The notes under the pieces are model-generated. The model had not been told where the DNA came from, did no database searches, and saw nothing but the letters and a program-made list of their open reading frames with translations. The translations under genes were made by a program, and so were the position numbers. This document shows, piece by piece, positions 1 through 20,781 of a stretch of 36,354 nucleotides of DNA. Position 1 is the stretch's first letter; each line of letters opens with the position of its first letter. This DNA comes from an uncultured Bdellovibrio sp. (GTDB lineage Bacteria; Bdellovibrionota; Bdellovibrionia; Bdellovibrionales; Bdellovibrionaceae): positions 1 through 36,354 of the forward strand of contig CALMPX010000206.1 in the NCBI GenBank assembly GCA_937871355.1, written 5' to 3'.

Positions 1-1
1 A

Positions 2-184
2 GAAATTACTCATTGGAAAGATATCGACCCTAATAAAAGAAGCGAAACTGAAATTACATTATATAAGATCTTTCGTTTAACTATGTTTCCTTTAGATTAC
101 AGATCGCAAAGTGAAATTGAGGCTATTTCTGGAAAGCCTATTGGCCCACCTGGGGCGTTTCCATTTATTGATTATGAATTGTAA
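2..184 (+). CDS. 3' end of an unidentified protein (partial, starts before the window)
   Basis: Frame 2 is open from position 2 to TAA at 182-184 (EITHWKDIDPNKRSE...PPGAFPFIDYEL*); no recognisable motif. Confidence 0.55.
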   Translation, partial: EITHWKDIDPNKRSETEITLYKIFRLTMFPLDYRSQSEIEAISGKPIGPPGAFPFIDYEL

Positions 185-226
185 TTTAAATCTATTGCTA
201 ACACTTCAGCATGGCAACTTCCCGCC

Positions 227-237
227 AGTCTATAGAA
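227..237 (+). repeat. Candidate attL core AGTCTATAGAA
   Basis: Identical to 12466-12476, which lies 60 bp after the integrase stop. Confidence 0.55.
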
Positions 238-262
238 CGATCTAAATATACAGAATTACTAC

Positions 263-314
263 AATCATTTCAAAAGAGTCTGACGGAAAATCGCCAGGCT
301 CTCTTGAATTGATT
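263..314. repeat. Long imperfect inverted repeat (23-nt arms, 6-nt loop)
   Basis: AATCATTTCAAAAGAGTCTGACG-gaaaat-CGCCAGGCTCTCTTGAATTGATT; 19/23 positions complementary. Confidence 0.8.
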
Positions 315-440
315 TATCTAAAATTATCTAAATTGAAAATACTTTCAAATACTTAGCCTAAAAAGTCTAACGTGCCACTCCAATTGCATTATCACTCCAG
401 CAAATAGCTCAATCACGAGCTTTTAACTAAGGAGTAAAAA

Positions 441-695
441 ATGAAATCCAATGCTGAGGCTTCTCGTCTATTCAATGAACTATACTTTAAATCTGAAGGT
501 CAAAAATTTCCTCGAAGAAAAATGTCTGAGACTTTAAACCGAATAAAAGATTGGTTTAACAAAGAACTTAGTTCGCCTGAAGTTTTACCCAAAGAGTTTA
601 ATGAAGTTATGCAGTCTCATAATTATCAGCCTCTTTCACAAAACCTGTCTTACGAAGTGATAAAAATGAATTTCTTATGGAGCAAAGCCTTATGA
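441..695 (+). CDS. Small hypothetical protein, first gene of the element operon
   Basis: Strong RBS AAGGAG at 429-434; ATGA overlap with the next ORF. Confidence 0.7.
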   Translation: MKSNAEASRLFNELYFKSEGQKFPRRKMSETLNRIKDWFNKELSSPEVLPKEFNEVMQSHNYQPLSQNLSYEVIKMNFLWSKAL

Positions 696-832
696 AATTT
701 TCTTTGAATCAACTTCGTCAGTCGTTTCGTGAGTTTTACGGGAACTTACCCATTGAAGAACTAGCCACAAATAGAAAACTAAGTGCTTCCATCGAAAGAA
801 TCGAATCCCTTTTTAGAAAGATTCTAGAATGA
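692..832 (+). CDS. Small hypothetical protein, 46 aa (absent from ORF track)
   Basis: MKFSLNQLRQSFREFYGNLPIEELATNRKLSASIERIESLFRKILE*; ATGA overlaps with both neighbours; resembles 829..1020. Confidence 0.7.
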   Translation: MKFSLNQLRQSFREFYGNLPIEELATNRKLSASIERIESLFRKILE

Positions 833-1020
833 CTTTATTGCTTAACAAAAAATTAAGCAGATTGAATATCATTTGTGAAATCAAAGAAGAGTTCTTGATC
901 TTATGGCGAGAGCTTTCACCTGCAACTAAACAAAATAAAAAATATCAGCAATCTATCGTTCGTTTATTAACTGATAGCGAAACTATCAAAAACAACCAAA
1001 ACAAGGAATTAGAAAAATGA
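829..1020 (+). CDS. Small hypothetical protein, 63 aa
   Basis: ATGA overlaps at both ends; similar to 692..832. Confidence 0.65.
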   Translation: MTLLLNKKLSRLNIICEIKEEFLILWRELSPATKQNKKYQQSIVRLLTDSETIKNNQNKELEK

Positions 1021-1391
1021 ACAAAAATGACAACACTGATCGCTTCCAAATTTATACCGGATTCAAAAAAGAAAACAATCTAGATGCTAGAATCCAAGTC
1101 GGAGCTGCCTTTAAAGATGAAAATGCCAGTCATTACACAGTTACACTTATGATGTTTCCTGGAATTAGATACTACCTGGTTAAAAACTTCAACCAAGTCG
1201 GAAAATACACAATTTTTGCGAAAATGATTTTTGATCCAACTCACCCCAGCAAGATGAAATTTTTAAATCCTGTAGGATACGGGCATTTAGACTCAAATCT
1301 TCAAAGCTATTTAGAGCTCAAGTTTCCACTTTTAAGATGCAGCCTATTTATGTCTCTATACCCTGATTCACTCAATCAGAAAGCGGCATAA
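1017..1391 (+). CDS. DUF736-like protein (putative ssDNA-binding)
   Basis: QVGAAF...HYTVTL and PVGYGH...YLELKFP...LFMSLY resemble the DUF736 IGAAW/Y-S-L-L-D-P pattern; RBS AAGGA upstream. Confidence 0.55.
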   Translation: MNKNDNTDRFQIYTGFKKENNLDARIQVGAAFKDENASHYTVTLMMFPGIRYYLVKNFNQVGKYTIFAKMIFDPTHPSKMKFLNPVGYGHLDSNLQSYLELKFPLLRCSLFMSLYPDSLNQKAA

Positions 1392-1675
1392 TGGTAAATT
1401 CAAGAAAATGGATTCCGTTTCTAGCCTCAGTGACAATTTTGATTTTACCTATGGTGGGTTTTTGCTCTGTTGAATCAAGTTTAGCTGCCGTGCAATCAAA
1501 ACTAATTGGAACTATTTTGCCTTTAGTTTCAATTATTGGATTAGTCATCGCTGCTATTTCATTCGTAGCAGGCTCCGCGAATGCTCGGGCCCATCTAACC
1601 TTAGCCATTATTGGCGCAGCTATTGGTTTTGGTGCTCCTAGCATCGTGAGCTGGATTCAGTCTCTAATTCACTAA
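1391..1675 (+). CDS. virB2: VirB2/TrbC-like T4SS pilin
   Basis: 94 aa, leader plus two hydrophobic helices (GTILPLVSIIGLVIAAISF; LAIIGAAIGFGAPSIV), first gene before virB3-virB4. Confidence 0.8.
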   Translation: MVNSRKWIPFLASVTILILPMVGFCSVESSLAAVQSKLIGTILPLVSIIGLVIAAISFVAGSANARAHLTLAIIGAAIGFGAPSIVSWIQSLIH

Positions 1676-1687
1676 CGTATTTCATAC

Positions 1688-1706
1688 GGGCGAGATTCAC
1701 TCGCCC
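1688..1706 (+). terminator. GC-rich stem-loop after the pilin gene (mRNA stabiliser or leaky terminator)
   Basis: GGGCGAG-attca-CTCGCCC followed by TCTT. Confidence 0.6.
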
Positions 1707-1724
1707 TCTTAAAAGGAAAAACTT

Positions 1725-2048
1725 ATGGAATTAAAGACTACTGAAGTCAGCCGGTGCTTAGATAAAAAAATGGAGATGCTAGGGTTTGAAGTCCCTGATC
1801 TGCTTATCATCTTTATAACTATCTCAGTTCTAAACTTTATTTTTAGTACCAGTGATATGAGATGGCTCTTTGTTTGGACGCCGAGCTTATTACTTACTGG
1901 AATCATAAAATGGAGTAAAAAAGGAAAACCCGATAACTACTTAGTCCATTGGCTCAGGTTTCAAATTAAGCCAGGCATTTTAAAAGCTTTTAATAATCCA
2001 ACCAATGATTTCCCCTCACCGTCTTTACAGAAAGAGAAAATTATATGA
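1725..2048 (+). CDS. virB3: VirB3/TraL/PrgI-like membrane protein
   Basis: 107 aa, two TM segments, LGFEVPD and KGKPDNYL; overlaps the virB4 start (ATGA). Confidence 0.7.
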   Translation: MELKTTEVSRCLDKKMEMLGFEVPDLLIIFITISVLNFIFSTSDMRWLFVWTPSLLLTGIIKWSKKGKPDNYLVHWLRFQIKPGILKAFNNPTNDFPSPSLQKEKII

Positions 2049-4465
2049 ATTCATCAAACTTAGCCGACTATTTACAAGTATGGGGATTAGAAGATCATCA
2101 TGTCATTTTTCGTGATGGAAGCTTTGGTTTTGGATTTTCCTTATTGCCTACAGATGCAAGCTGCTGGTCGTTAGATTTAGCTAACGAATACTCGTACAAG
2201 CTTATGAGTTTTTTAAATGGATTGAGTGTTGGTTTAGATTTGCAATTCATGGCCGATATTTCTCCTGGCAACGAATCTATTATTCAAAAACATAAAGATT
2301 CAAATCTATCCGCCGATCCTATTGTTTGCGAAATTACCCAAAACCGTGCAGATCGTTTCTTAGACTATGATCAAAAAGGACTTTTACCTTCACATGGTCT
2401 AAAATTATTTGTTCGACGTCAGCCTAAATCGGCTTTGATCGAAAAAACTAATCTGTTTAAGAAGAATCAAAACTTTTCAGAAATTTCAGATGAACGTTTA
2501 AAACAAGAACTTGCTATAAATGAAAGATTGATTTCCGATTTGACATCCGAACTCAACAGGCTTTCCCTTCGCCCTCAGTTATTAACTGCCGAAGAAATTT
2601 TAAATCTGATTTATAAACAATGGAACCCATCTCGTTCCATTGAACTCGGTCATGTAGATCCCCACTACATCCGAGAGGGGTTATTGTTTACCGATGTCGG
2701 TCTTTACAACACAGGCTTTGAATTAGGTGATTACAAATACAAAGTCATCTCGCTTAAGCTTTTACCAGAGCAAACCTTTGCAACTATGGCGAGTCGCTTA
2801 CGTGAACTTCCTTTCGACTCTCAGGTCTTTTTAACAATCCATGTTCCCGATCAAACAAAGGAAATTGAAAGTCTAAAAACACAACGTCGTATGGCGTATG
2901 CGATGGTAACGGGAAAAAGAACTGGCGTTTCAGATCTTGAATCAAGAGCTAAGCTTAACGACCTTGAAAAATTATTAGAACAAATGGTCGCAAGTGGAGA
3001 AAAAGTTTTCCAAATGAGTCTTCAAATAGTGCTGAAATCTCAAAATACAGACGAGCTTGACGCAAAAGTCTCTGAAACCTTATCAAAGCTTCGTGAAATG
3101 GCTGGTATCGAAGCTATGGAGGAAACTTTAGCGAGCTTCGATATTTTTAGTGAAATTGCCGTTCCTCATGCAAAAACTCATGAGCGTACTAAAAGGATTA
3201 AGTCGAGTAACCTCTGTGATCTATTACCTGTCTACGGTCCTTGGAAAGGCCATAGCGAGCCCAAGATCCTACTTCGCTCAAGATTAGGCTCACTAATGAG
3301 TTTTAATCCTTTTTCGAGTGATTTAGGAAATTTTAATCAAATCATAAGTGGTGGCTCCGGTAGTGGTAAATCCTATTTAACCAATCTTTTGATGATGCAA
3401 ATGTTTAAAGACAATCCAAAAGTTTTCATCATCGACATTGGCGGAAGCTATGAAAAATTATGTAACAACTTTAAAGGTCAGTACATTCACTTAGGTGTCG
3501 ATACAAAACTAAGCATTAATCCGTTTGATTTACCTGTTGGTGAAGCTGTACCAACAAGTCAAAAAATCAAGTTTTTATTGAGTTTAGTTGAAATTATGAC
3601 AAAAGAAAATGAACAGGAACAACTCGGAAAACTTGAGAAATCTCTCATAGAATCTGCCATTGAAGAAGTTTATGAAACATCGCAAGCTCCAAGGTTATCT
3701 GATTTAAAAAACATTCTTTTGAATCACCCAGAGAAATCATTAGTTCGTATTGGAAAAATATTAAATTCTTGGTGTGGAAACTCAGCTTACGGGAAATTTG
3801 TTGATCAACCTACTACCCTACAACTTAATTCCAATATAGTCAGTTTTGATTTGAAAGGCATGGATGACTACGAGGATCTTCAAGCAGCTTGTTTGTTTAT
3901 TATCACTGATTATGTTTGGCGTGAAGTTCAACAAGACCGATCAAAAATGAAATTTCTTGTATTTGATGAGTGTTGGAAATTAATGGAGAACGACTCAGCT
4001 CAAATTTTCATTAGTGAAGTTTTTAGGACTTTCCGAAAATATATGGCTTCAGTTATTGCGATTTCTCAAAATATGGATGATTTTGCCAAAAGTAAAATTG
4101 CTACAGCCATTCTTCCTAATTCTTCAATTAAATGGGTTCTAAAACAAAAGGGCTCTGACTTTGAAAGACTAAAAGATATTTTAAGTTTAAATCCGAATGA
4201 AATTCAATTAATTCAAAGCTTAAGTCAAGAGCGCGGAGTTTATTCTGAAGCTTTCCTCATGGCCGAAGATAATAAAGCTGTCGTATTAATCGAATCATCA
4301 CCTTTAGAGTATTGGCTAGCAACGACCGACGGCCGAGATTTAGGAAAGATTCAGGAATATAAAGCGAAGTACTCAGAACTTGACGAATTATCTCTTTTAA
4401 AGAAACTCGCTCAAGATTTTCCGATTGGATTTGCGGCGTCAAAAAACAATGGAGCAAAATTATAA
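2045..4465 (+). CDS. virB4: VirB4/TraC-family T4SS ATPase
   Basis: 806 aa; Walker A GGSGSGKS, IIDIGGSY, INPFD, Walker B LVFDECW, RTFRKY...ISQ. Confidence 0.93.
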   Translation: MNSSNLADYLQVWGLEDHHVIFRDGSFGFGFSLLPTDASCWSLDLANEYSYKLMSFLNGLSVGLDLQFMADISPGNESIIQKHKDSNLSADPIVCEITQNRADRFLDYDQKGLLPSHGLKLFVRRQPKSALIEKTNLFKKNQNFSEISDERLKQELAINERLISDLTSELNRLSLRPQLLTAEEILNLIYKQWNPSRSIELGHVDPHYIREGLLFTDVGLYNTGFELGDYKYKVISLKLLPEQTFATMASRLRELPFDSQVFLTIHVPDQTKEIESLKTQRRMAYAMVTGKRTGVSDLESRAKLNDLEKLLEQMVASGEKVFQMSLQIVLKSQNTDELDAKVSETLSKLREMAGIEAMEETLASFDIFSEIAVPHAKTHERTKRIKSSNLCDLLPVYGPWKGHSEPKILLRSRLGSLMSFNPFSSDLGNFNQIISGGSGSGKSYLTNLLMMQMFKDNPKVFIIDIGGSYEKLCNNFKGQYIHLGVDTKLSINPFDLPVGEAVPTSQKIKFLLSLVEIMTKENEQEQLGKLEKSLIESAIEEVYETSQAPRLSDLKNILLNHPEKSLVRIGKILNSWCGNSAYGKFVDQPTTLQLNSNIVSFDLKGMDDYEDLQAACLFIITDYVWREVQQDRSKMKFLVFDECWKLMENDSAQIFISEVFRTFRKYMASVIAISQNMDDFAKSKIATAILPNSSIKWVLKQKGSDFERLKDILSLNPNEIQLIQSLSQERGVYSEAFLMAEDNKAVVLIESSPLEYWLATTDGRDLGKIQEYKAKYSELDELSLLKKLAQDFPIGFAASKNNGAKL

Positions 4466-5151
4466 TGAAAAAACTATCTTTATATTTTTTAATTCCTATT
4501 TCGTTTTTGTTTCCTATGCAATCTAAAGCCGACTTTTTCGGTGGTGATCTTATCTACTTAGCTCAAATTTTAGAGAATGCTATTCGTCAATACAAAGAGC
4601 TTCAAGCTATTATGGAAAACAATAAAGATCAGTTAGAACTCATGCGTGCCATTAATCAGGGAATTAATGATTCCTTAAATCTGGTCAGAACCGTTTACCC
4701 TAATATCGACTCTGGGGTTTATAACGATTGGTCTAACGCTAGCGATTCAATCAAAAAGCTGACCGATATTTATGGAGAGATTACACAGTCTCCGATGAAA
4801 CGTATTTATCAAGACACCGATCAAAGCGTTGCTGAGGCTATTACGTTAAATAACGACATTTATAAATATACAAAAAACATCGACGAGCTTGGTGAAGTTA
4901 TAAAAGATGTCAGTCACGACGTTTCCCCCGGAGGAGCACAAAAGCTGACAGCACAAACTCTTGGCGTAGTTCTGCACGTGATGAATCAGACTTTAAGAAC
5001 TCAAGCCACTGGACTAAAGCTTCAAGCTCAAACCATCGCACTGAACAATAAAAAAGAAAAAGACTCAACCAGGCAATATTTAGATACGGCTAATACCCTT
5101 AAGCAAGCCATGAAATCAGATAACATCAAATTTCAATCACCACGATTTTAA
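4465..5151 (+). CDS. VirB5/TrbJ-like secreted helical T4SS protein
   Basis: Signal peptide (...QSKA), helical Q/L-rich body, position between virB4 and virB6. Confidence 0.6.
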   Translation: MKKLSLYFLIPISFLFPMQSKADFFGGDLIYLAQILENAIRQYKELQAIMENNKDQLELMRAINQGINDSLNLVRTVYPNIDSGVYNDWSNASDSIKKLTDIYGEITQSPMKRIYQDTDQSVAEAITLNNDIYKYTKNIDELGEVIKDVSHDVSPGGAQKLTAQTLGVVLHVMNQTLRTQATGLKLQAQTIALNNKKEKDSTRQYLDTANTLKQAMKSDNIKFQSPRF

Positions 5152-5162
5152 AGGAAAAAAGA

Positions 5163-6056
5163 ATGTTTACAGATATGAATTGGCTCGCCACCGAGTCACG
5201 GAAAATCCATGAGATTTTTAGCTCTTACTTTTACCTTTTAGTCACAGTGTTACTTTTGTTAGGTATTCTGGTTGAGTATTTTAAGTGGCCTTTAGGACAA
5301 GTACCACAATTCTCTCAATTGATCGGAAGAGCATTAGTCGCAGCCCTTTTGCTTCATGCCTACCCCGAAATTACAAATATCATTGCCGACGTAACCGATG
5401 CCGTGGCGCAAAGACTGGGAGATCTAAATAACTTTAAACTTATTCTTGATCGCATGGGAGATAAGCTTGGAGAACTCAGTTGGTCTTGGGTTTCTATAAA
5501 AGAATCAGTTATGTTACTTTTAAGTTTTTTAACTTTTTTCATACTGTATATATCCATTTATATTGCGGATAGCTTTTATATCTTCGTATGGGTCGTGCTT
5601 TACGTTTTCTCACCGCTGCTTATAGCATTGTATGTATTACCTGTTACAGCGCCCGCCACATCAGCTTTGTTTAGATCGCTTTTTGAAGTCGCCAGCTGGA
5701 AAATCGTTTGGAGCGTTATCGCGACATTACTTTGGAGTAGTGCTTTAAGTAAGATCAATCAAGATGGAAGTCAGATTAACTTCTTAACTGCTATTTGCTT
5801 TAATATCATTCTAGCAGGATCTCTTTTGCTTACTCCCTTCCTCGTACACGGATTGATGGGTTCAGGAGTGTCTCAAATGACTAAGGATCTAGGCTCTCTG
5901 GCTATTGGCGGATTAACTCTAAACCCTGGAACTGCTGTTTCAGCATCAAAAGCCATTATTGATAAGAGCCTACCAGGATCATCACCGAGTAATCCCCGTC
6001 AAAATTATAAATCTTCTGCCTCAAGTAATTCTCCTCGAAAAACAATTAAATCATAA
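5163..6056 (+). CDS. virB6: VirB6/TrbL-like polytopic membrane protein
   Basis: Multiple TM helices, SPLLIALYVLP motif, low-complexity Ser-rich tail. Confidence 0.72.
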   Translation: MFTDMNWLATESRKIHEIFSSYFYLLVTVLLLLGILVEYFKWPLGQVPQFSQLIGRALVAALLLHAYPEITNIIADVTDAVAQRLGDLNNFKLILDRMGDKLGELSWSWVSIKESVMLLLSFLTFFILYISIYIADSFYIFVWVVLYVFSPLLIALYVLPVTAPATSALFRSLFEVASWKIVWSVIATLLWSSALSKINQDGSQINFLTAICFNIILAGSLLLTPFLVHGLMGSGVSQMTKDLGSLAIGGLTLNPGTAVSASKAIIDKSLPGSSPSNPRQNYKSSASSNSPRKTIKS

Positions 6057-6068
6057 AGGATTTAGAAA

Positions 6069-6611
6069 ATGAAATACACAAATGCGTGGTCAGAAATGGC
6101 TTCACAAAATCGAACTCTTAAATTAGTCACTTTTTTCTTATTCGCAATCTGCCTCACTTTATCTGTAATCACTTTAAAAATAAGTTTTAAAGAAGCCTTG
6201 ATTATCGACCGTGGATGCTTTTCTTCTGCTTTGAATGCTGGGAAAGACGAAAGAACTTTTACTGAAATCGAAAGCTTTATCAAAGCAGCGTTGGCTGAAA
6301 GATTTGATTCAGATTCTTTACATAAGGGATTTATCACTGCTGATGAGAAAAAATTAAAAGACTTAGAGCAAAAAGAATTTTTATCCCGAAATATTAAGCA
6401 AAAAGTCATTGTCAACTCTGTCTCGCAGACAAAGGAAGGCTTTATAGTCAACTCTGACAGATTGATTTCAGTCGGCGATATCCGTTCTGCTTTTCGATTT
6501 CCCCTAAATATACAAATTCAGACCCAAAACCGTTCAGAATATAATCCTTATGGATTGATTCTTGTTTCAACCCAAACTTTTAATGAGAAAGTGAAAAAAG
6601 ATGAAAAATAG
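6069..6611 (+). CDS. VirB8/TraE-like protein
   Basis: Single N-terminal TM; C-terminal RSEYNPYGLIL matches the VirB8 NPxG motif. Confidence 0.75.
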   Translation: MKYTNAWSEMASQNRTLKLVTFFLFAICLTLSVITLKISFKEALIIDRGCFSSALNAGKDERTFTEIESFIKAALAERFDSDSLHKGFITADEKKLKDLEQKEFLSRNIKQKVIVNSVSQTKEGFIVNSDRLISVGDIRSAFRFPLNIQIQTQNRSEYNPYGLILVSTQTFNEKVKKDEK

Positions 6612-7086
6612 TTCTGTGGAAAAAAAGAAAAATTTTAAGTCACAAGTATTATGTTTCTTGTATGAGCTTATTAATATCTTAAGCATTACAACTTTGATTT
6701 GTTTGGTTATTTGGCTGTTGCTTCGAGGGGAAGATGTACACGCAAAAACAGGAGTCCGAGTATCTAAGCAACCAAAAATTAAAAATGTTTATTGCGATGA
6801 TTCTAAAATGGTTCCTATCCTAGTAAAGCCTACTTTTACAACCATACTGAATTTTCCAGTAAAACCTGATAGCGTTGTCTTAGGCAGTCAAAAACTATTT
6901 TCAGTTGATTACATCAAAAGCGACTTAGCCATAAATAGTTTAACGTCCAATTCTAAAACAAACCTTTTTGTTTACCTGTTCGGACGTAGATGTGGATTTG
7001 AGTTAAGGACTTCGCACGGAGATCATGACAATCTCGTTCTTGTACGAGATCCAGAAGAAAACAAAATCAAAGTGCAAATTCAGTAA
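6601..7086 (+). CDS. Short VirB9/TraK-like protein
   Basis: N-terminal hydrophobic segment, beta-rich domain (FTTILNFP, KTNLFVY); lies between virB8 and virB10. Confidence 0.6.
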   Translation: MKNSSVEKKKNFKSQVLCFLYELINILSITTLICLVIWLLLRGEDVHAKTGVRVSKQPKIKNVYCDDSKMVPILVKPTFTTILNFPVKPDSVVLGSQKLFSVDYIKSDLAINSLTSNSKTNLFVYLFGRRCGFELRTSHGDHDNLVLVRDPEENKIKVQIQ

Positions 7087-7091
7087 ATCTT

Positions 7092-7964
7092 ATGACAGAA
7101 GAAACACAAGTTAAACCTGCAAAAAATAAGGGAGCCAAGTCCCGCTGGGGACTTGGCTCCCTTATCTATAAAACTGAAGGTAAAAAAAGAAGTCTCAATA
7201 CTAAGCTCATCATTTTTTTGCTGGGAATTTTCGTTATATTAAGCACAACCTATTCATTGATATCAGCATTTTTCGATCCAGCTCAGATCGGGAATGAAAC
7301 TATTGGACTAAAAACTATTTTGAATGGCCAATCACAAAATGATGAATTAGTTCAATTAGATTCCAAAAATACAACTACGAAAAGAAAAGTAACAAGTAGT
7401 AAATATTTTGCGGGAGCACAGATTATCAATCGTCAAAATAAAGTCAAAATTCCGGGTGGAACATTGGTCAAGGCTCAAGTCCTAACTCAATCACCACAAG
7501 GACATATTCGCGCCGTATTGAGTGAGCCTGTCATTATACAAGGTGAAGAAATCATATCCTCAGGCTCAACTATTTCTGGCGTTGGTCTATCTAATGATGA
7601 CCGTCTGCATGTTAGGTTTAATAAAATGCTCGATAAGAGCGGTAAAACCTATACGATTGAAGCTTTAGCTTGTGATGAATCAGACCAAGCTCTCGGTATT
7701 AAAGGAAAAAAATCCACTCGAGCAGCGTGGCTTATGGCAACGAGTACAGGATTGAGTGTACTTTCACAAGTCTCACAAGGAATAAATAGCTACTCGACAC
7801 CAGAAGAAACTCTCGAAGAGCAACTCAAGAAACGCGCCGTCGGCGAAGCTTCAAAAAACACACTTGAACAGTCCCAAAACTACTTATCCGATTTCAAAAA
7901 CCAGAAAACTACAATCCAAGTCGATTCTGGAACTGCGATTTATATCTTATTTGAAGGTGAATAA
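7092..7964 (+). CDS. virB10: VirB10/TrbI/TraM-like core complex protein
   Basis: TM anchor, IPGGTLVKA, ISSGSTISG, RLHVRF, LGIKG, IQVDSGTAIYILF. Confidence 0.82.
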   Translation: MTEETQVKPAKNKGAKSRWGLGSLIYKTEGKKRSLNTKLIIFLLGIFVILSTTYSLISAFFDPAQIGNETIGLKTILNGQSQNDELVQLDSKNTTTKRKVTSSKYFAGAQIINRQNKVKIPGGTLVKAQVLTQSPQGHIRAVLSEPVIIQGEEIISSGSTISGVGLSNDDRLHVRFNKMLDKSGKTYTIEALACDESDQALGIKGKKSTRAAWLMATSTGLSVLSQVSQGINSYSTPEETLEEQLKKRAVGEASKNTLEQSQNYLSDFKNQKTTIQVDSGTAIYILFEGE

Positions 7965-9407
7965 ATGACTTCCAAACCCACTAAAGCCAAAAATGAAGCT
8001 TTCGATAATATTTTTAATGCTATTAAAAACATTATCTTTATTTTCTCTCAGGCATTGCTCGAAATATGTTATGGCATTAAAAATGGCGCGATCCCCTATG
8101 GACCACCCGTCATTTGGAGTGCTTTATTCAATCTAGCTGTGATTTTCAAAATTGATCAGAAGATATTTAGACTTTGCAAAATGGACTTTCTATATCCAGG
8201 TACATTTATTGTATTTGTAATCTATTCCATTACGGGCGCAAGTCTTGGTTTCATCGCATGGGGACTCATTCAATCAAAAAGAAAATCTCGTATGATGCAG
8301 AATTTAACTGAATGTTTTATCAACAGTGGTCTTAAAAGCGCTACCGGCAAGCTCCCTGGTTTTATTTCAGATCTTCCTGTGGATGAATTTGTACGTGAAC
8401 TGATCGTGACAAATGCCTTTCAGCCATTAAGTAAGTTTAAAGAAGTTCAAAATCAAATTGGCTCCGCTTTAAAGATTTATGTCGATGATATTACAGAGAA
8501 CCGTGCGAGTGGTACTATTCACATCTTATATTCGCATAAACAAATTCCACGGATGTTCGAGCTTGGAGAAAATATTTTCCAACCCAAGCACCAATTTGTT
8601 ATAGGAAAAAATAGAATAAAAACGGTCTTCACCGATTTAGTCCAAACTCCTCATTTATTAATCGGTGGCCAAACTGGTGGTGGTAAATCGACTTTTTTGA
8701 GATCCTTAATAGCAACACTTTATAAGCAAAATACAAACTACGAATTTATTCTGATTGATATGAAAGGTGGTTTAGAATTTCAGCTTTTTGAAAATCGAAA
8801 ACGGATTACAGTCATTTCAAATATTAAGAATGTTAAGGAAAGACTAACATCATTGGATAGATTACTGGAGGAAAGATTTCTGCTGCTCAAAGAAAACCAG
8901 TGCAAGGATTTAGAAGCGTATTCAAAAATTGATTCTGATAAAATTAAAGTTCCTAAATCTATCGCTAGCATTCATCACAGAGCCATGAATCGCCTAGTTG
9001 TTGTCATTGATGAGGCCGCAGAATTATTTTTATCAAGTTCCAGATCAACGATTTCAGATACACAAGATATGGTTCGGAAAGTTATTCGTTTAGCTGCTCA
9101 AGGACGTGCTGTTGGTATTCATTTGGTTATTGCAACACAAAAGCCTGATTCAAATGCCATCAACACTCAAATTAAAGCCAACTTAACTGGAATCATCTCG
9201 TTTCCCATGTCTACATTAGGTGCGAGTATGTCGATTCTTGGTAATGGGCGAGCTAAAGAACTTCCTAATATTCCAGGACGCGCCATTTGGAAAAATGGTT
9301 TAGACCAATTTGAAGTGCAGACACCTTATATTAGCCCTGATCAAGTAAAACTAGAGCTGGACAAAATCTCACCGCTTAAAGATGAAGAAACACATGAAAA
9401 AATCTAA
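7965..9407 (+). CDS. Membrane-anchored FtsK/SpoIIIE-family ATPase (candidate coupling protein / DNA translocase)
   Basis: N-terminal TM helices; PHLLIGGQTGGGKS, ILIDMKGG.EF, VVVIDEAAE, GRAVGIHLVIATQKP. Confidence 0.9.
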   Translation: MTSKPTKAKNEAFDNIFNAIKNIIFIFSQALLEICYGIKNGAIPYGPPVIWSALFNLAVIFKIDQKIFRLCKMDFLYPGTFIVFVIYSITGASLGFIAWGLIQSKRKSRMMQNLTECFINSGLKSATGKLPGFISDLPVDEFVRELIVTNAFQPLSKFKEVQNQIGSALKIYVDDITENRASGTIHILYSHKQIPRMFELGENIFQPKHQFVIGKNRIKTVFTDLVQTPHLLIGGQTGGGKSTFLRSLIATLYKQNTNYEFILIDMKGGLEFQLFENRKRITVISNIKNVKERLTSLDRLLEERFLLLKENQCKDLEAYSKIDSDKIKVPKSIASIHHRAMNRLVVVIDEAAELFLSSSRSTISDTQDMVRKVIRLAAQGRAVGIHLVIATQKPDSNAINTQIKANLTGIISFPMSTLGASMSILGNGRAKELPNIPGRAIWKNGLDQFEVQTPYISPDQVKLELDKISPLKDEETHEKI

Positions 9408-10287
9408 ATTTGCGATCACTGATGATGACTACACACTTTTAATGAATCTTTGGCGCTGGAAAATTTTAACCACTTCAATGATTCACTCGTCTATTTACAA
9501 GCACAGAACACTCACCGCCTGTTATAAAAGGCTGAACCGTCTGGAGCATAATAAATATATAGAATCCTTTAGCTCAAGAGATTCAAAAAGATGGTTTTGG
9601 CAATTAACAGATAAAGGTTACAAAGTTCTGAATTTTGAAGAGATACAAATAAATCAAGTTGGCTTCAAGTCTGAGCATAAAGATCACGATTTTCTAGTGA
9701 CGTTGTTTCACTTTGGAATCGAGCAGTCATTTTTAAACTCTGATAGTGGTATTTACTCTGAGCAGGAATTACGTCGAATAGAGCTTGAAAGTTATCCTGA
9801 TTGGGTTCCCCATACCCAACAACACCGACCCGATGGCTATTTTAAAACTGATTTATCACTTACTAATGATAAATCACTGGTAGCGATCGAAGTGGAACTC
9901 AATTTAAAATCGGCTCAAAACTACATAGATCTAGGCCGCTTTTACACAGATACATTAGGAATTCATCAGGTTCTTTGGCTTGTTAAAACCGAAGCCGAGG
10001 CTCTGTTTATACAGAAAAACTTAATGAAAGGCTCAAGTAATAAAGCTATTGAACATAGCTTTATTACTATAAGCCAATGGCTTCATCAGCTTTGGCAAAC
10101 CGAAATTACCCTTGGCAAAAACCACAAACAAAATATTGAAAATATATTTGGTACCATTCCGGTACTTCCACGGTCCCCTGTACCCGACAAGGTGCTTTTT
10201 GAATTTAGAAAAAAGCTAATGAATTCGACTGTTCATACAAATCAAATAAAATCGGTTTCAGCGGTCAATAAGATTATAGGTTACTAA
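9382..10287 (+). CDS. Replication-relaxation (Replic_Relax)-like protein: wHTH + PD-(D/E)XK-like domain
   Basis: N-terminal wHTH (YKRLNRLEHNKYI...WQLTDKG), HKDHD, RPDGY, VAIEVELNLKS; overlaps the FtsK gene. Confidence 0.72.
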   Translation: MKKHMKKSKFAITDDDYTLLMNLWRWKILTTSMIHSSIYKHRTLTACYKRLNRLEHNKYIESFSSRDSKRWFWQLTDKGYKVLNFEEIQINQVGFKSEHKDHDFLVTLFHFGIEQSFLNSDSGIYSEQELRRIELESYPDWVPHTQQHRPDGYFKTDLSLTNDKSLVAIEVELNLKSAQNYIDLGRFYTDTLGIHQVLWLVKTEAEALFIQKNLMKGSSNKAIEHSFITISQWLHQLWQTEITLGKNHKQNIENIFGTIPVLPRSPVPDKVLFEFRKKLMNSTVHTNQIKSVSAVNKIIGY

Positions 10288-10303
10288 TCAAAATGGAGAA
10301 AAT

Positions 10304-10552
10304 TTGAAAATAATAAAAAATGGTATTAACATAATACTATACTTGAATGTATTGGCACTTGTATCTTGTACGACACCTAATAAGGATACTCTTCCGAATG
10401 CTGGTCAACGTAACAAGAATGATAACAAATCACCTTTTCTAACCGCTCCCAAAGTCAGAAAAGTTTGGATTCCAGAAAAAATTGAAAATGATAAATTTAT
10501 TGAAGGTCATTATATGTGGATCTTAGAAAAAACTTCTTCATGGAGTCAGTAA
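10304..10552 (+). CDS. TraV/VirB7-like small lipoprotein
   Basis: Lipobox LVSC; PKVRKVWIP...GHYMW; TTG start with GGAG RBS. Confidence 0.65.
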   Translation: MKIIKNGINIILYLNVLALVSCTTPNKDTLPNAGQRNKNDNKSPFLTAPKVRKVWIPEKIENDKFIEGHYMWILEKTSSWSQ

Positions 10553-10554
10553 AT

Positions 10555-10977
10555 ATGGAAAACAAAAAACAAAATAAGAAAATAGACCGGATCTTAATTG
10601 ATCCAAGTAATATGCAAATACTTAATGATATTGCTCACCAGGTTCAACGAGAACTTGGTGAAACAATTAGTGTAAATTCAAAGATCATCTGTAACTTCTT
10701 AATTAAGCTTCGGATTAGCCCTCTTTCTCAGGAAGAACTCCAACTGCTTAGGACTGAAAATCAGGATATAGTTAAAACTTTGCGCAATGTTACTCAAGAA
10801 GCAATTAGAGCAAGAAAAAACGGACTGGACTTCAATTTAAATGATGTGAGCAAAATTCTTGAGACACTCAGTGTTAAAGACAAATCTATTGCGACAAAGA
10901 CCTTTAAATCGAAGAAATCTCAAAAACCGCAAAATTCAAAAGACTCAGGCGATTTGTCGCTACCAGAGCCAGGCTAG
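10555..10977 (+). CDS. Hypothetical protein (possible element regulator)
   Basis: ATG at 10555 directly after the previous stop is preferred over 10516; basic and helical. Confidence 0.6.
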   Translation: MENKKQNKKIDRILIDPSNMQILNDIAHQVQRELGETISVNSKIICNFLIKLRISPLSQEELQLLRTENQDIVKTLRNVTQEAIRARKNGLDFNLNDVSKILETLSVKDKSIATKTFKSKKSQKPQNSKDSGDLSLPEPG

Positions 10978-11065
10978 GAATAAAAATGATGGAATACGAG
11001 TTAACATTTAATGATGTAAATTCCATACGAATAATCTATAAAAAAATATCTTTTTTGTTTTCAAA

Positions 11066-11311
11066 TTGAGTAGTATAAATAAAGTAAATGATGAAGTTCA
11101 AACTTCATCATTGCTCTTTGAAAATAAAATAGAACCCATATGGGTTTCTACGAAGGTAGCCGCTAACATTCTAGGAATTTCTTCAAACGCTTTGCGAATT
11201 AGAAAATTCCGAAATCAAATTGAATGTCGGTATTTCGGAAATCAACTTAGATTTAATGTAGGTTATTTGAACTCCTTAATTCGCGTTGAGCGAAAAAAAG
11301 GAGAAGGTTAA
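11066..11311 (+). CDS. Excisionase-like (MerR/AlpA-type HTH) protein
   Basis: WVSTKVAANILGISSNALR...I...FGNQLRF; directly upstream of the integrase. Confidence 0.75.
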   Translation: MSSINKVNDEVQTSSLLFENKIEPIWVSTKVAANILGISSNALRIRKFRNQIECRYFGNQLRFNVGYLNSLIRVERKKGEG

Positions 11312-11314
11312 TCT

Positions 11315-12406
11315 ATGAGTATAAGAAAATTGATCGTCGATGGAAAGCCTACGTATGAAGTCTTTATCAAAATTCGAGATAAAGCAGGAAAACAGTTAGC
11401 AAAACGGAAACGCTTTGACACTGAAAAGGAAGCAAAAAGAGCTGAATTTGAAATCCTGCAAGAACTCGAAGGACACAAAACAAAAGTTACTTGGAAAGCC
11501 TGGGTAGAGCGAGTACTTGAAAAGTATAAAGTTGAATATGTAAATTCAACATACTTAAACTATAAGTATTGTTTGAATAAGTGGTTTGATCCGATTTGGA
11601 ATGATAAATTCCTTGAAGACATCAAGCCAAGCGATGTTCATTATGCAGTATTTGAAGGTTGTACTGTTTCCTCAAGTTATACAAAACGTGGTCTACTTAA
11701 AATTGTAAAAAGAGTTTTTGGTCTGGCTATTGTGGAAGGGATTCTCGTGCGGAATCCCGCTGTGGGAATTCGAGTAAAATGTGCGGAAGCAAACCAAGGT
11801 GTACTCAATCGAAAAGAAGTTGAAATTCTTCTTACGGAAGCCCGGCGCACTGACCATCGCTTTTTTCTACATTGGACACTGGCAATACTCACGGGGATGA
11901 GGTCTGGCGAATTGTTCAGCCTACGTTGGACTGATGTTGATTTCGTTTCAGGCATCATCAGCGTGAACAAAGCTTGGACAAGATATAATGGCGAGGGATC
12001 GACAAAAACTGCTAAAAACCGAATAGTGCCTATGTCGAAGGAGTGTCGAAAATTTCTTGAAGAAGTTAAACTTAAGTACTCAAGTTCTTCAGAATACGTT
12101 CTGCCTAAAATTTGGGAATGGATGCAAGGAGAGCAAGCTAAGGTACTAAAAAACTTCTGCAACGAGATTGGGATCACCCCTATCAAATTCCATGATTTGA
12201 GGGCTACTTTCATTACGCAGATGCTCAACAACGGTGTTCCATTGTCGAAGGTTATGGCCATAGTTGGACACTCTTCGATTAAGACAACTCAAGGGTACTT
12301 GAGACTCTCCGGAAAGGATGTCGAGGGAGCCACGGAAGATTTGAATATAACAGTACCAGCATTTCAAGAGCATTCAGACAATGTCGTCTCTTTATTTCCC
12401 GGCTAG
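11315..12406 (+). CDS. int: Tyrosine recombinase / integrase
   Basis: TGMRSGEL, TKT, FHDLRATF, VGHSS, TTQGY all present; N-terminal arm-binding-like domain. Confidence 0.96.
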   Translation: MSIRKLIVDGKPTYEVFIKIRDKAGKQLAKRKRFDTEKEAKRAEFEILQELEGHKTKVTWKAWVERVLEKYKVEYVNSTYLNYKYCLNKWFDPIWNDKFLEDIKPSDVHYAVFEGCTVSSSYTKRGLLKIVKRVFGLAIVEGILVRNPAVGIRVKCAEANQGVLNRKEVEILLTEARRTDHRFFLHWTLAILTGMRSGELFSLRWTDVDFVSGIISVNKAWTRYNGEGSTKTAKNRIVPMSKECRKFLEEVKLKYSSSSEYVLPKIWEWMQGEQAKVLKNFCNEIGITPIKFHDLRATFITQMLNNGVPLSKVMAIVGHSSIKTTQGYLRLSGKDVEGATEDLNITVPAFQEHSDNVVSLFPG

Positions 12407-12492
12407 ACAGTACAGGTAACATTATGGTAACATGGGTTTGATTTTTAACGTAATTTCAATGGGTTAGTCTATAGAAGACTTACCCATCCAAA
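12407..12492 (+). repeat. Candidate attR module: two GGTAACAT arm-type repeats, IHF-like site, palindromic core
   Basis: GGTAACAT at 12415-12422 and 12426-12433; TTTCAA-TGGG-TTA at 12454-12466; TGGGT-T-AGTCT-ataga-AGACT-T-ACCCA palindrome. Confidence 0.7.
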
Positions 12493-12599: not shown

Positions 12600-12917
12600 C
12601 TATTCTTCTTCGCAAGTTAAATTAGCTTTAGGATGAGCATGGTTATATTCGTCTACTCGTGAGCTTAGAGTATCTTCACAAGTTGCTTGAGCTGCCTCAG
12701 CGTAGTCTGAAGCACCTACACAATCACTAATGTCTTCAAAGTCTCCATTTTCGATACCTTCGTCGCACATGAGAGATACGCAATCATCTTCGGCTAGCTG
12801 AACGAGCTTTTGACAGATAGCAGCCTTAGTCACTTTTTCTTTTGGTTGGTGTTTTGCTTTTTGTGCAAAGGCCGTTGTCGAAATTAATGCTAGGCCTATT
12901 AAAAATATTTTTTTCAT
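12600..12917 (-). CDS. Small secreted six-cysteine protein
   Basis: Signal peptide MKKIFLIGLALISTTAFA; 6 Cys; RBS AAGGA. Confidence 0.8.
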   Translation of the reverse strand: MKKIFLIGLALISTTAFAQKAKHQPKEKVTKAAICQKLVQLAEDDCVSLMCDEGIENGDFEDISDCVGASDYAEAAQATCEDTLSSRVDEYNHAHPKANLTCEEE

Positions 12918-13200
12918 AGTATTTCCTTAGTTAAATGATACCGCTCCAAAGTTTGTGGGATTAATTTCCCATGTTATTCAAACGAAACGATTCTTATTAT
13001 GGTGGTAATATAACTGAAATACTTTTAAATCATAGATGTCAGGATTTTTGACATGTAATGATTTCTAAAAGAACCGAATTGCACCCATATAAATCTGGCA
13101 TATTTTGCCCTTTTCTATACCCAGCATATCTATATTCCTGATCGCATTATGAGGTGTAGTTCGCTTAGCAAACGTCGTTCAGCATAAGCGAAAGTGATTT

Positions 13201-13286
13201 ACAGCCATGGCAACGCTTTGGTATCCTCGAATTAGGATATTCAACAAAATCAATGGGCTACTCGATAGGCGAGTAACCCCTCCAAA
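13201..13286 (+). repeat. Degenerate second copy of the 12407-12492 att-like module
   Basis: Same length and layout; 29/37 identity between 13250-13286 and 12456-12492; palindrome preserved. Confidence 0.7.
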
Positions 13287-16214: not shown

Positions 16215-17306
16215 TCACTTATAGCTCGCCTGATTCGATAGTTCCGCAATAAATTTTCGACACTCATCATAGGATCCTTTAAAGGCTATTTTAACATTTC
16301 GTCTTTGGATACTTCCCAGGTATAACGGGTCATAATAATAAACCAGCAATTTTTCTATCCACAGCTTGTTACTTTGCAACTCACCGTTTGATAAAAAATC
16401 TTGCTCCGATTTATCCAACAAAGAAAGAATTTCCTGCGATCTTAATCCACCAAGTTTTTTTTGTATTGATTTTACTGATTTTTTAAATCCATTCATCAAC
16501 GTTGATTTATCTAAATGTGAATTTAAAATATAATCGGTAAAAATATTTTCGACCCTTTGAAACAAATTCTCTTGAATCCAAATAACCGAGGACTCTCTCA
16601 TTTTATCAAAAACTACTGTCGGTATGACGTTCTTTCCGATCAAACGGCTCTCGTCTTCAAATAAAATGACTTTTTTCGAACCTTGCCTAATCATCTTCAA
16701 GGCTAAAGCATTTTCAAAATTAATTTGCGTCGGTTGTGGTGTCTCACGAGAACCAAAGGCCGACCCCCGATGCAGAGCCAACTCTTCCAGATCAATCGAT
16801 AATTTTTTTCCTTCGGTACAATTGAGTAATTGTGTTTTACCACTGCCGGTGGGACCGCTCACGAGCATAAAATTTGATTCTTTAACAATTTGATTTGTTC
16901 GATCTAAGAAATGATTCCGTACAAATTTATACCCGCCTACAATCAAGGGCCGGTCAACACCCGCTTCTTTAAGCCATTGCTGGGTAATTTGCGAACGAAG
17001 GCCACCGCGAAAACAGTAAATGACGGCTTGTGGATTTTTTAAAATATAATCAGTCCAAGCTTTGATTCTTTGAGTCTTCACCGAACCGCTGATCAATTCA
17101 TATCCTAAACGAAGCGCTTCTTCGCGGCCTTTTTGTTTATAAGCTGTACCGACAGCGGCCCGTTCTTCATCGTTCATAATTGGCAAGTTCGCCGCATTTG
17201 GCAAAGATCCTAAATTAAATTCAACCGGAGCCCGCACATCAATCAGTGGCGTACCTTTTAAAAAAATTGAATCTAAATCTTCGTGGCTCACATTTTGTTT
17301 ATTCAA
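16215..17306 (-). CDS. mnmH: tRNA 2-selenouridine synthase
   Basis: IDVRAPVEF, rhodanese YCFRGGLRS, P-loop GPTGSGKT, HRGSAFG, EDESRLIG, YYDPLY; overlaps selD. Confidence 0.96.
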   Translation of the reverse strand: MNKQNVSHEDLDSIFLKGTPLIDVRAPVEFNLGSLPNAANLPIMNDEERAAVGTAYKQKGREEALRLGYELISGSVKTQRIKAWTDYILKNPQAVIYCFRGGLRSQITQQWLKEAGVDRPLIVGGYKFVRNHFLDRTNQIVKESNFMLVSGPTGSGKTQLLNCTEGKKLSIDLEELALHRGSAFGSRETPQPTQINFENALALKMIRQGSKKVILFEDESRLIGKNVIPTVVFDKMRESSVIWIQENLFQRVENIFTDYILNSHLDKSTLMNGFKKSVKSIQKKLGGLRSQEILSLLDKSEQDFLSNGELQSNKLWIEKLLVYYYDPLYLGSIQRRNVKIAFKGSYDECRKFIAELSNQASYK

Positions 17307-18348
17307 AAATCACCGATTTGTAATCAAGGCTTTGAACCTGACCGATGATTGTAGTCGATGGAAATCTGACTTTTAAAGCTTCGACGATTTTTTGGCTGTA
17401 TTGTGGATCAACAGATAACAGTAACCCACCGCTTGTCTGCGGATCATGAATGAGAGATTTAAATAAAGGCGACAACTTTTCAGTCTCGATCGAAGCTGAA
17501 GTATAATCTGCATTGGTGCGATGAGCTTTGGTCAAAAAGTTTTTCTCTAAACATTTCATGGCCATCGGAAAAAGAGGCAAATTTTGGCTTTCTATTTTCA
17601 AAGTGACTTCACTAGCCTTGGCTAATTGCATGCAGTGACCGGACAGTCCAAAACCGGTAATATCTGTCGCGGCATGAACAGCTTTTTTTTGATCGTCGGA
17701 TAAAAAATCAATCGCATTATTAATTTGCGACATACTTTTTATGACATCCATCATGTCGAACTCTTTGATTTCCTGACGTTTAAGTGCAGCGGTAATCGTT
17801 CCCGTTCCGAGCGCTTTAGTTAAGATAAGATGATCTCTGACTTTGGCTCCGGTATTGGTCCATATTTTTTGCGGATCAACAAATCCCGTGACAGAAAGAC
17901 CAAACTTTAAAGTGTCATCATCAATAGAATGTCCTCCGACAAAATTAGCGCCGGCTTCGGCCACCACATCACTGGCCCCTTGCATGACTTCAACAATTGT
18001 TTCAGCGCTCATGGTGGCCAAAGGAAAGGCTAATATTCCCATCGCTGTTTTAGGACGACCGCCCATCGCATAAACATCACTCAAGGCATTGGTCGCGGCC
18101 ACAGCGTCGAAGTGGCGAGGCGAATCTAAAATAGGCGTAAAGAAATCTAAAGTCTGAACCATGGCAATGGAATCATTAATTTTATAAACTCCTGCATCGT
18201 CAAAGAATCGACCATCCACTAAAAGCTCAGGATGAGGCTTGGGAAAATGTACTTGAGATAAAATAGTTCGCAATTCTGTCGCCGAAACTTTAGCGGCACA
18301 TCCACCTTTTTGAACGGTCTGAGTTAAAGACGTTTCGATTTTATTCAC
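17299..18348 (-). CDS. selD: Selenide, water dikinase (Cys form)
   Basis: GGCAAK, DDAGVY, TLDFFTP, NALSDVYAMGG, GGHSI, TDITGFGL, DPQTSGGLL. Confidence 0.96.
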   Translation of the reverse strand: MNKIETSLTQTVQKGGCAAKVSATELRTILSQVHFPKPHPELLVDGRFFDDAGVYKINDSIAMVQTLDFFTPILDSPRHFDAVAATNALSDVYAMGGRPKTAMGILAFPLATMSAETIVEVMQGASDVVAEAGANFVGGHSIDDDTLKFGLSVTGFVDPQKIWTNTGAKVRDHLILTKALGTGTITAALKRQEIKEFDMMDVIKSMSQINNAIDFLSDDQKKAVHAATDITGFGLSGHCMQLAKASEVTLKIESQNLPLFPMAMKCLEKNFLTKAHRTNADYTSASIETEKLSPLFKSLIHDPQTSGGLLLSVDPQYSQKIVEALKVRFPSTTIIGQVQSLDYKSVIFE

Positions 18349-20027: not shown

Positions 20028-20603
20028 ATGAAACGCAAAATTATTTCATTATTTGTTAAAATAGGAATATCACCCAATTCTTTAACTTTAATCGGACTTG
20101 GACTCGGAGTTTTCTCTTGCCTCAGTTTCATTTTAACAAAAAATTGGTTGCTGTTTATCATTCTACTGAGCTTGAGCGTTTGCTTCGATTTTCTTGATGG
20201 AGGCGTTGCTCGTGCCAGCAACAAAGTTACAAAATTTGGGTCTTATCTTGATGCGATAAGTGATCGCGTATTAGATGGCTTAATTTTAATAACAACGGCT
20301 TACATAACTGGGTATTGGATGTTGTGCAGTCTACTTATGCTTCTTACTTTAAGCGTTAGTTATGCTAAAGCGCGCGCAGCACTCGAAGTTCCAATTTTGA
20401 ATACGGAATGGCCCGACCTGATGCAAAGGCCGCAAAGAATTATTTTTATTATTATAGGTCTTAGCGCAAATCAAATAATCCCTTTTTTAATAGGGGGACA
20501 AGATATTTTATTTTGGACGCTTTTTTCAATGAATGGACTTGTTGGTTTTACACTTTTACAAAGAATATATCGAGCTTATATCATTATAAAAGAAAGAAGC
20601 TAA
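20028..20603 (+). CDS. CDP-alcohol phosphatidyltransferase (PI-phosphate synthase-like)
   Basis: SPNSLT; DFLDGGVAR...KFGSYLDAISDR signature; VSYAKARA; next to the inositol-phosphate synthase. Confidence 0.9.
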   Translation: MKRKIISLFVKIGISPNSLTLIGLGLGVFSCLSFILTKNWLLFIILLSLSVCFDFLDGGVARASNKVTKFGSYLDAISDRVLDGLILITTAYITGYWMLCSLLMLLTLSVSYAKARAALEVPILNTEWPDLMQRPQRIIFIIIGLSANQIIPFLIGGQDILFWTLFSMNGLVGFTLLQRIYRAYIIIKERS

Positions 20604-20781
20604 AACGTCATCTTTTGCCTATATCTCTAAATAAATATTATCATGGCTAAAAATTTAATGACTCTAAATTGACTAATACCTCGAAAATTTGTCATTGCTA
20701 AGGTTCTATAGGAGGTCTCACTCTTTATGATATGTTGACTTTGATCATATAATCAATTCTGATCTTGAAAAAGGAATCATT

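Follow-up and report, generated by a model that had tools for sequence, protein, structure and literature searches.

The window, a stretch of 36,354 nucleotides comprising an entire contig (C206) of an uncultured Bdellovibrio sp. (assembly GCA_937871355.1, 79 % complete; contig CALMPX010000206.1), carries at a tRNA-Gln(TTG) site the transfer and integration core of a mobile element that likely conjugates by means of an FtsK/TcpA-type coupling protein and a MOBC-like relaxase; we give this reading a probability of about 0.78. On its gene content we regard the element as a real and widespread variant of the integrative and conjugative element (ICE), predicted to combine a diderm type IV secretion system (T4SS) without VirB11 with these two proteins. 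In the following, C denotes contigs of the source genome, G other genomes and L mapped loci. Seventeen open reading frames (ORFs), all on the plus strand, occupy positions 441 to 12406. Strong Pfam or library matches were obtained for VirB4, VirB10, an FtsK-type ATPase, a Replic_Relax protein and a tyrosine integrase, weak library matches for VirB2, VirB3, VirB9 and a TraV-like lipoprotein. The original prediction, made from the sequence alone, had described an uninterrupted virB operon followed by ftsK, a replication-relaxation gene, a lipoprotein gene, xis and int. Gene order and plus orientation agree with this; VirB5 and xis had no library match and are placed by position, VirB5 also by an Atlas lead and xis by its size. 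Also supported was the pairing of a diderm-type T4SS with an FtsK-type ATPase replacing VirD4, as seen from the VirB10 core, the TcpA-like ATPase and the VirD4 that sister elements carry in the same slot. As predicted, library scans of the window proteins found no VirD4/TraD and no HUH relaxase among the module ORFs, nor VirB11. No description of the combination was found in the literature searched; subscription journals and supplements lay outside the search and could list such elements.

The ATPase, the inferred coupling protein (7965..9407, plus strand; FtsK_SpoIIIE, PF01580, E 1e-25), has an N-terminal membrane segment with a hydrophobic stretch at residues 80-98; a gamma domain was not matched in the Pfam scan. 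Among solved structures TcpA of plasmid pCW3 (6o1z) ranked first, with 101 bits for the single sequence and 241 bits for the family profile, followed by FtsK structures with 68 and 163 bits, respectively. VirD4/TrwB structures were not listed for the single sequence and were not found at E ≤ 0.01 with the family profile. Structure 6o1z aligned to profile positions 104-448, and the family matches TcpA over the alpha and motor domains. Full-length pCW3 TcpA, also the best plasmid match, reached 259 bits on the same profile (positions 11-465), Firmicute plasmid FtsK proteins encoded beside a replication-relaxation gene ~210 bits, chromosomal FtsK 157-173 bits and R388 TrwB 17 bits. With such a distance between TcpA and TrwB, the ATPase is not of the VirD4/TraD kind, as had been predicted. 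Its matches to VirD4-family models (TraD E 0.015, TrwB_AAD E 0.004) spanned ~45 residues and did not extend beyond Walker A. Beyond its own cluster, the Atlas neighbours were mostly Bacillota proteins of 430-510 amino acids (aa). Walker A, Walker B, R381, which we take to be the arginine finger, and Q392 are unchanged throughout the 59 family ATPases compared. In trees the element ATPases formed one clade (60 rows, Shimodaira-Hasegawa-like approximate likelihood ratio test 95 in a quick search; 12 rows, support 94/96), separate from a Bdellovibrionota chromosomal FtsK and from EccC/EssC. The trees, built with only two TcpA references, without Streptomyces TraB and L032 and, in the second case, also without TcpB, gave no firm order of branching among this clade, TcpA, the Firmicute plasmid proteins and chromosomal FtsK. 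We consider the ATPase TcpA-like in predicted architecture and in position, which does not imply descent from TcpA. A fusion of ATPase and nuclease in frames of 785 aa was rejected, three being ordinary two-gene loci and one a host FtsK.

FtsK-type ATPase and VirD4 are exchanged one for one among sister elements. The source genome contains a second copy of the element at ~78 % DNA identity (C450, C49) and a third, distant element on C315, in which the same chassis has VirD4 (PF12696, E 3e-14) directly after VirB10. Twenty-one regions were mapped around VirD4 matches or neighbouring elements. In seven of them VirD4 lies directly behind the VirB10 position and the nuclease gene is retained, VirB10 being recognised by profile in three and represented in the other four by an equally long ORF without assignment; the other regions have mostly VirD4 and the nuclease in a different arrangement. 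Both ATPases in one module occurred in none of the 21 regions, and the PD...ExE...K motif was present in 20 of their 21 nuclease matches. In a FastTree phylogeny of 67 VirB4 proteins the VirD4-type L223 joined the 49 main FtsK-type VirB4s with a support of 93; the VirB4s of three FtsK-type elements form a lineage of their own. The sisters with VirD4 and Replic_Relax (C315, L218, L223) have the virB2-B10 chassis, lipoprotein, nuclease, xis and integrase in common with the C206 element and differ in the canonical VirD4 (PF12696) in the ATPase slot; no paper on them was found. PF12696 was absent from 13 of 42 carrier genomes, in which PF10412 and PF02534 gave matches of Walker A length only, and nine of these 13 hold the full gene order. 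Because sisters carry VirD4 in its slot and 13 of the 42 carriers gave no VirD4 match, the role of coupling protein in the element most likely falls to the ATPase. MOBP, MOBF, MOBQ, MOBV and MOBH were each matched in none of five carrier genomes, MOBT and MOBM lying outside this genome-wide search.

The gene behind the ATPase (9382..10287, plus strand) encodes a MOBC-like relaxase candidate with a winged helix and a PD-(D/E)XK nuclease domain. It matched Replic_Relax (PF13814) above the cut-off (E 1.7e-6, 28.7 bits versus 25.3), and 25 of 58 family members matched PF13814 at E ≤ 0.01; the NCBIfam model MobC_subf was matched by 38 of the 58, the best member with E 2.8e-9, although far under the cut-off of this model. 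H102 is invariant, and the nuclease residues D151 (58/58), E170 (57/58), E172 (55/58) and K176 (57/58) are conserved. The structural model combines a winged helix with MarR-type matches and a restriction-nuclease-like domain at a modest Z of 5-6. In the accessible parts of the sources, the MobC of CONJscan corresponds to PF13814 proteins (PMC5357655), and MOBC relaxases are described with a PD-(D/E)XK fold and an N-terminal winged helix (PMC12857230). A nuclease search of plasmids gave only matches at E 0.3-0.9, and the CloDF13 record only a fragment at E 0.035, too weak to be used. The protein had originally been read as standing instead of a MOB relaxase. This was wrong in substance, since PF13814 corresponds to MOBC, 38 of 58 family members match MobC_subf and the same gene partners VirD4 in the sisters; what is new is therefore the coupling protein and the fact that it is combined with a MOBC-like enzyme, our candidate relaxase.

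Of the mating-pair proteins VirB4 and VirB10 were matched directly, VirB8 by fold and VirB2, VirB3, VirB6 and VirB9 weakly, while VirB5 is a lead only. All genes lie on the plus strand. The VirB4 ATPase (2045..4465) scored 332 bits on the TraC-F-type model (E 7e-99) and 205 bits on VirB4_CagE, both below the respective model cut-offs, and the VirB10/TrbI outer-membrane core protein (7092..7964) matched TrbI above the cut-off of 35 (49.9 bits, E 4.5e-13). For the VirB8-like protein (6069..6611) a model with a predicted local distance difference test score of 90 was obtained, whose top Foldseek matches were VirB8/TraE/CagV (E 5e-4 to 1e-3, probability 1.0). The VirB2-like pilin (1391..1675; TrbC/VirB2 E 2.7e-5, under the cut-off) has three hydrophobic segments; the VirB3/TraL-like protein (1725..2048) was assigned by position and a TraL match under the cut-off (E 0.0045). 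A probable VirB5/TrbJ-like minor pilin (4465..5151) belongs to a family with a Pfam match in 0 of 41 members; its Atlas neighbours include a cluster with PF07996 on 20 % of the members (score 0.92) and a TrbJ-named cluster (0.91). The VirB6-like polytopic membrane protein (5163..6056) has four hydrophobic segments, and TrbL/VirB6 was matched by 8 of 47 family members (best E 1e-6). The VirB9-like protein (6601..7086; E 0.0056, model positions 3-114) is short, with 161 aa, and by length and profile match comprises the N-terminal domain only; CagX was matched, below its cut-off, by 5 of 14 tested relatives. The C-terminal domain of VirB9 wraps VirB10 in the outer-membrane core, and the present form seems to do without it. 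In the family, lengths of 123-161 aa were found for 41 of 57 members and of 230-279 aa for 16. A TraV/VirB7-like lipoprotein (10304..10552; TraV E 0.024) follows the nuclease; among 13 relatives one passed the TraV cut-off and 12 have a glycine zipper. A G+C-rich short inverted repeat at 1686-1706, between virB2 and virB3, possibly tunes pilin versus downstream transcript levels.

The architecture is conserved. Sixty loci were chosen from the matches of a phylum sample for contig room and spread of scores. The nuclease gene follows the ATPase gene in all 60, VirB10 comes before the ATPase in 53, and 45 show the complete order virB2-3-4-5-6-8-9-10-ATPase-nuclease, in line with the predicted synteny. 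By our reading of the gene map, the remaining 15 consist of three cut by contig ends, six interrupted or decayed, three with a different, larger T4SS and three without an adjacent T4SS. The pattern was repeated in 7 of 7 additional element loci. As kin are not independent, these counts show conservation and are not statistics. In the phylum sample 96 of 401 Bdellovibrionota genomes, about a quarter, gave a match at E ≤ 1e-30, a count that includes at least one host FtsK; a profile search yielded ~140 full-length or near full-length clusters among the best 150. Among the best 80 of 210 loci, obtained in a scan with one genome per species, the nearest relative was a Pseudobdellovibrionaceae bin with 75 % identity. 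Most of these 80 are titled Bdellovibrionales, Pseudobdellovibrionaceae, Bacteriovoracaceae or Oligoflexales, which supports the Bdellovibrionota host that had been proposed; some have broader or discordant titles (Pseudomonadota, Deltaproteobacteria, one Chlamydiae bin, one Streptomyces bin). A single-protein locus scan gave no result. The integrase of 47 complete modules is of the tyrosine type in 31 and of the serine type in 16, and many modules adjoin tRNA or tmRNA genes. One element is common to two genera with 91.9 % identity over 12.3 kb (one of 11 pairs, the others having 66-83 %); together with the exchange of integrases this suggests mobility.

The right end of the element is the displaced 3' tail of tRNA-Gln(TTG) at 12483..12490 (plus strand), followed by a host hairpin: the sequence from 12483 matches that behind the intact tRNA-Gln(TTG) in the empty sites of G408 and G419. 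In the empty sites of G343 and G415 tRNA-Gln is directly followed by the VF530 gene, which lies here at 13313. The tyrosine integrase (11315..12406, plus strand; PF00589 E 8e-29, Arm-DNA-bind_4) belongs to a group targeting tRNA-Gln(TTG) and is 71 % identical to that of a VirD4-type element at tRNA-Gln, which extends over ~28 kb from the tRNA to the same kind of tail. Ahead of it lies a probable excisionase gene (11066..11311, plus strand), assigned by size and position, of a family present in 27 of 62 loci and without library match. Two direct GGTAACA repeats (12415..12432, plus strand), the only such pair in the assembly, are probable integrase arm sites, and repeats similar to them lie at both ends of the G040 element; left-arm repeats were not found elsewhere in the source assembly. 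The partner tRNA-Gln is absent from the window and located on C381, where the 3' end of a serine-recombinase-like gene follows. A second, degenerate attachment (att)-like scar before the VF530 gene (13254..13284, plus strand) is similar to the ends of the elements in G433 and G417. From this scar and the arrangement on C381, the tRNA-Gln site most likely holds a tandem array, with the left end of the present element unassembled.

The original prediction had assumed a compact element of ~12 kb between att cores at 227 and 12466, and neither assumption held. The candidate core at 227..237 (plus strand), AGTCTATAGAA, recurs at 12466-12476, but an 11-bp match is no more than chance would give: of 1000 stretches drawn at random from this genome, 91 had an 11-mer or longer in common with window positions 1-440. 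With the right end at the tRNA-Gln tail and the left end beyond the contig, the 12 kb are the conserved transfer and integration core rather than the element. The truncated 3' end of an ORF at the contig start (2..184, plus strand; no Pfam match) is probably cargo inside the element, which extends leftward. Delimited relatives measure 22-34 kb, the three FtsK-type ones ~22, 29 and at least 34 kb. Their cargo includes two-component systems, resolvases and a methylase; VirD4, VirB11 or a relaxase were not detected among its 29 ORFs (≥ 130 aa, E ≤ 1e-6). When 47 loci were searched for direct repeats in the ~5 kb ahead of virB2, two matches at E ≤ 0.003 were obtained, and with 20 kb more sequence convincing tRNA-linked ends were obtained in 3 of 20 loci. 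Public contigs, with shares of 0.06-0.24, were too thin for a circle junction, and an origin of transfer (oriT) was not located.

Based on these gene assignments, the following course appears plausible. Integrase and excisionase would free a circle, the winged-helix/PD-(D/E)XK protein would cut an origin of transfer, and the membrane-anchored hexameric ATPase would bring the DNA, once processed, to a VirB2-VirB10 channel of reduced composition that works without VirB11. The DNA would cross both membranes and then re-integrate at a tRNA or tmRNA gene. Since the nuclease family is shared with the VirD4 sisters, the substrate is by default expected to be single-stranded. Several points weigh against this reading. 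Conjugation, excision, nicking and binding are predictions from the genes. The left part of the element is missing from the 79 %-complete assembly, thus a further gene may be located there. The nuclease of the window scored 18.4 bits on MobC_subf, for which the curated cut-off is 200. Some VirD4 is present in 29 of 42 carrier genomes, including the source genome with C315. Firmicute plasmids carry adjacent FtsK and replication-relaxation genes where the annotations around them include no T4SS gene, and 3 of the 60 loci have the ATPase-nuclease pair without adjacent T4SS; the pair is thus not bound to a channel. The genomes are mostly metagenome bins, hence the cross-genus identity could be due to misbinning.

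An alternative that we regard as unlikely retains element and channel and lets the FtsK-type motor pump double-stranded DNA, as FtsK and Streptomyces TraB do, after the restriction-like nuclease has opened the excised circle. It draws on the alignment of the family to the alpha and motor domains of TcpA and on the accessible part of PMC12857230, where the pCW3 TcpA hexamer is FtsK-like, double-stranded transfer is suggested and no covalent DNA intermediate was detected for MOBC relaxases. Systems of TcpA and MOBT are, however, interpreted as single-strand in the accessible part of PMC3548315, and the same nuclease family pairs with VirD4 on a related channel in the sisters. Equally doubtful is the more far-reaching view that Bdellovibrionota recruited an FtsK-type pump for double-stranded DNA independently of TcpA, on at least two unrelated T4SS chassis and with a non-covalent, restriction-like nuclease, and may move double-stranded DNA across both membranes. 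If true, this would be a conjugation mode undescribed in diderms, with the VirD4 sisters as natural controls. A role of the FtsK-nuclease pair in replicating or segregating the excised circle, with transfer absent or borrowing VirD4 from another element, is improbable. The name of PF13814 does cover replication as well as relaxation proteins, on Bacillus pFR55 and on a plasmid of Thermoanaerobacterium the pair has no T4SS genes beside it, and the 29 carriers with VirD4 elsewhere could lend it; the ATPase, however, has a membrane segment, occupies the exact VirD4 slot, never shares a module with VirD4, and belongs to a full gene order in the nine genomes without VirD4 match. Co-option of the channel for protein delivery or prey interaction, with an EccC/EssC-like substrate motor, is very improbable: although the ATPase also matches EssC and EccC models and the host phylum is largely predatory, the ATPase groups apart from EccC/EssC and the module is patchy (96/401 genomes), multi-copy, always with the nuclease, mostly with an integrase, and at tRNA genes.

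The predicted conjugation through an FtsK/TcpA-type coupling protein and a MOBC-like relaxase would set the element apart from the known systems. TcpA systems (pCW3; the TcpA type of Tn916 and ICEBs1, class MPF_FA, MPF standing for mating-pair formation) likewise have an FtsK-type motor that comprises an alpha domain and is anchored in the membrane at its N-terminus, encoded beside T4SS genes and a non-HUH relaxase, in replacement of VirD4. Unlike these, the present element belongs to a diderm host, its channel includes VirB9, VirB10, a pilin and a lipoprotein, and its candidate relaxase is of a MOBC-like kind (a PF13814 nuclease) instead of MOBT or MOBM; the accessible parts of PMC3548315, PMC4027160 and PMC12857230 confine TcpA to Firmicutes or MPF_FA. 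With MOBC relaxases (CloDF13 MobC, pAD1 TraX) the nuclease has in common the winged helix, the PD-(D/E)XK domain and a gene adjoining that of the coupling protein, but it stays far under the NCBIfam MobC cut-off and is paired with an FtsK-type ATPase. According to the accessible part of PMC5357655, the MobC elements of streptococci rely on VirD4, and a combination of TcpA with MobC did not occur among them. Resemblance to F-type systems (MPF_F) consists in TraC as best VirB4 model, the TraL-like VirB3, the TraV-like lipoprotein and the lack of VirB11; the module differs in having VirB5- and VirB6-like genes and, by library scans and with no spare ORFs, no TraW, U, N, F, H, G or TraD. Its VirB4 is ~24 % identical to the F-type and is placed by the tree closer to Myxococcus and Thermus plasmid VirB4s. 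Unlike in MPF_T, no VirB11 ORF is present in the module, the left arm lying outside the contig. The Firmicute plasmid pair (Bacillus pFR55, Thermoanaerobacterium pTHETHE01) has the same two-gene order, with an ATPase of ~395 aa without the N-terminal part and no T4SS genes in adjacent annotations. Actinomycete integrative and conjugative elements with TraB also employ an FtsK-type translocase, but VirB10 directly precedes the ATPase here in 53 of 60 loci, and TraB acts without T4SS or relaxase according to the accessible part of PMC12857230.

Four further module ORFs on the plus strand are of unknown function: two small leader ORFs of 84 aa (441..695) and 63 aa (829..1020), 76 and 66 % identical to those of the second copy on C450, a conserved ORF of 124 aa upstream of virB2 (1017..1391; family in 32 of 62 mapped loci, no Pfam match in 16 relatives) and one at 10516..10977 (49 of 62 loci, no Pfam match in nine relatives). 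The Rfam scan gave nothing above gathering score. Upstream of virB2 a sigma-54 activator gene lies within ~5 kb in 20 of 47 elements (e.g., L032, L040-L042, L044, L045, L047-L050, L052); none of the 47 has one downstream of the integrase. TGGCAC is enriched upstream of virB2 (forward 31/47, reverse 16, expected 12.6); a sigma-54 promoter was not accepted and remains a lead, as the consensus spacing occurred in 1 of 47 and TGGCAC did not track nearby activators. In L072, L079 and L090 the ATPase-nuclease-integrase module is joined to a different, larger T4SS of the separate VirB4 lineage. L070, L084 and L086 as well as the VirD4 versions L210, L212, L220 and L225 have coupling protein, nuclease and integrase with no adjacent T4SS and are possibly mobilisable elements. 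On the Myxococcus plasmid NZ_CP123279 (L206) related VirB4, VirB5-like and VirB10-like genes, the latter annotated as a 795-aa protein kinase, lie beside a DUF2381 gene; DUF2381 was weakly matched by one VirB9 relative. Large serine recombinase genes have 3' ends overlapping antisense tRNA or tmRNA genes at C381:5004-5657 and in L038-L041, L058, L060, L065-L067, L071, L074-L077 and L080.

Between the two att-like tails, in 12600-13284, a minus-strand ORF of 105 aa with a secreted appearance is probably a remnant of an earlier element. Elsewhere on the contig, a 1066-aa surface protein (22103-25303, minus strand) has ~12 repeats spaced near 162 nucleotides, which by eye look like the RCC1 type. 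Adjacent genes at 16215-18348 (minus strand) presumably encode tRNA 2-selenouridine synthase-like and selenophosphate synthetase-like proteins, and at 20028-22077 (plus strand) we assume a CDP-alcohol phosphatidyltransferase-like gene beside a myo-inositol-1-phosphate synthase-like gene.

In the accessible part of PMC12857230 all Gram-negative T4SSs are stated to use VirD4-family coupling proteins. With a family that occurs in roughly one in four of the sampled Bdellovibrionota genomes, the present findings break this VirD4-only rule and that of a Firmicute TcpA. Scans based on VirD4 would miscall such elements. As near-identical chassis occur with VirD4 or with an FtsK-type motor, the swap of one gene could test single- versus double-stranded DNA transport and could also address the way in which relaxases of the MOBC type pass on DNA that is not covalently bound to them. 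The elements could also be of use as native tools for gene delivery in predatory bacteria.

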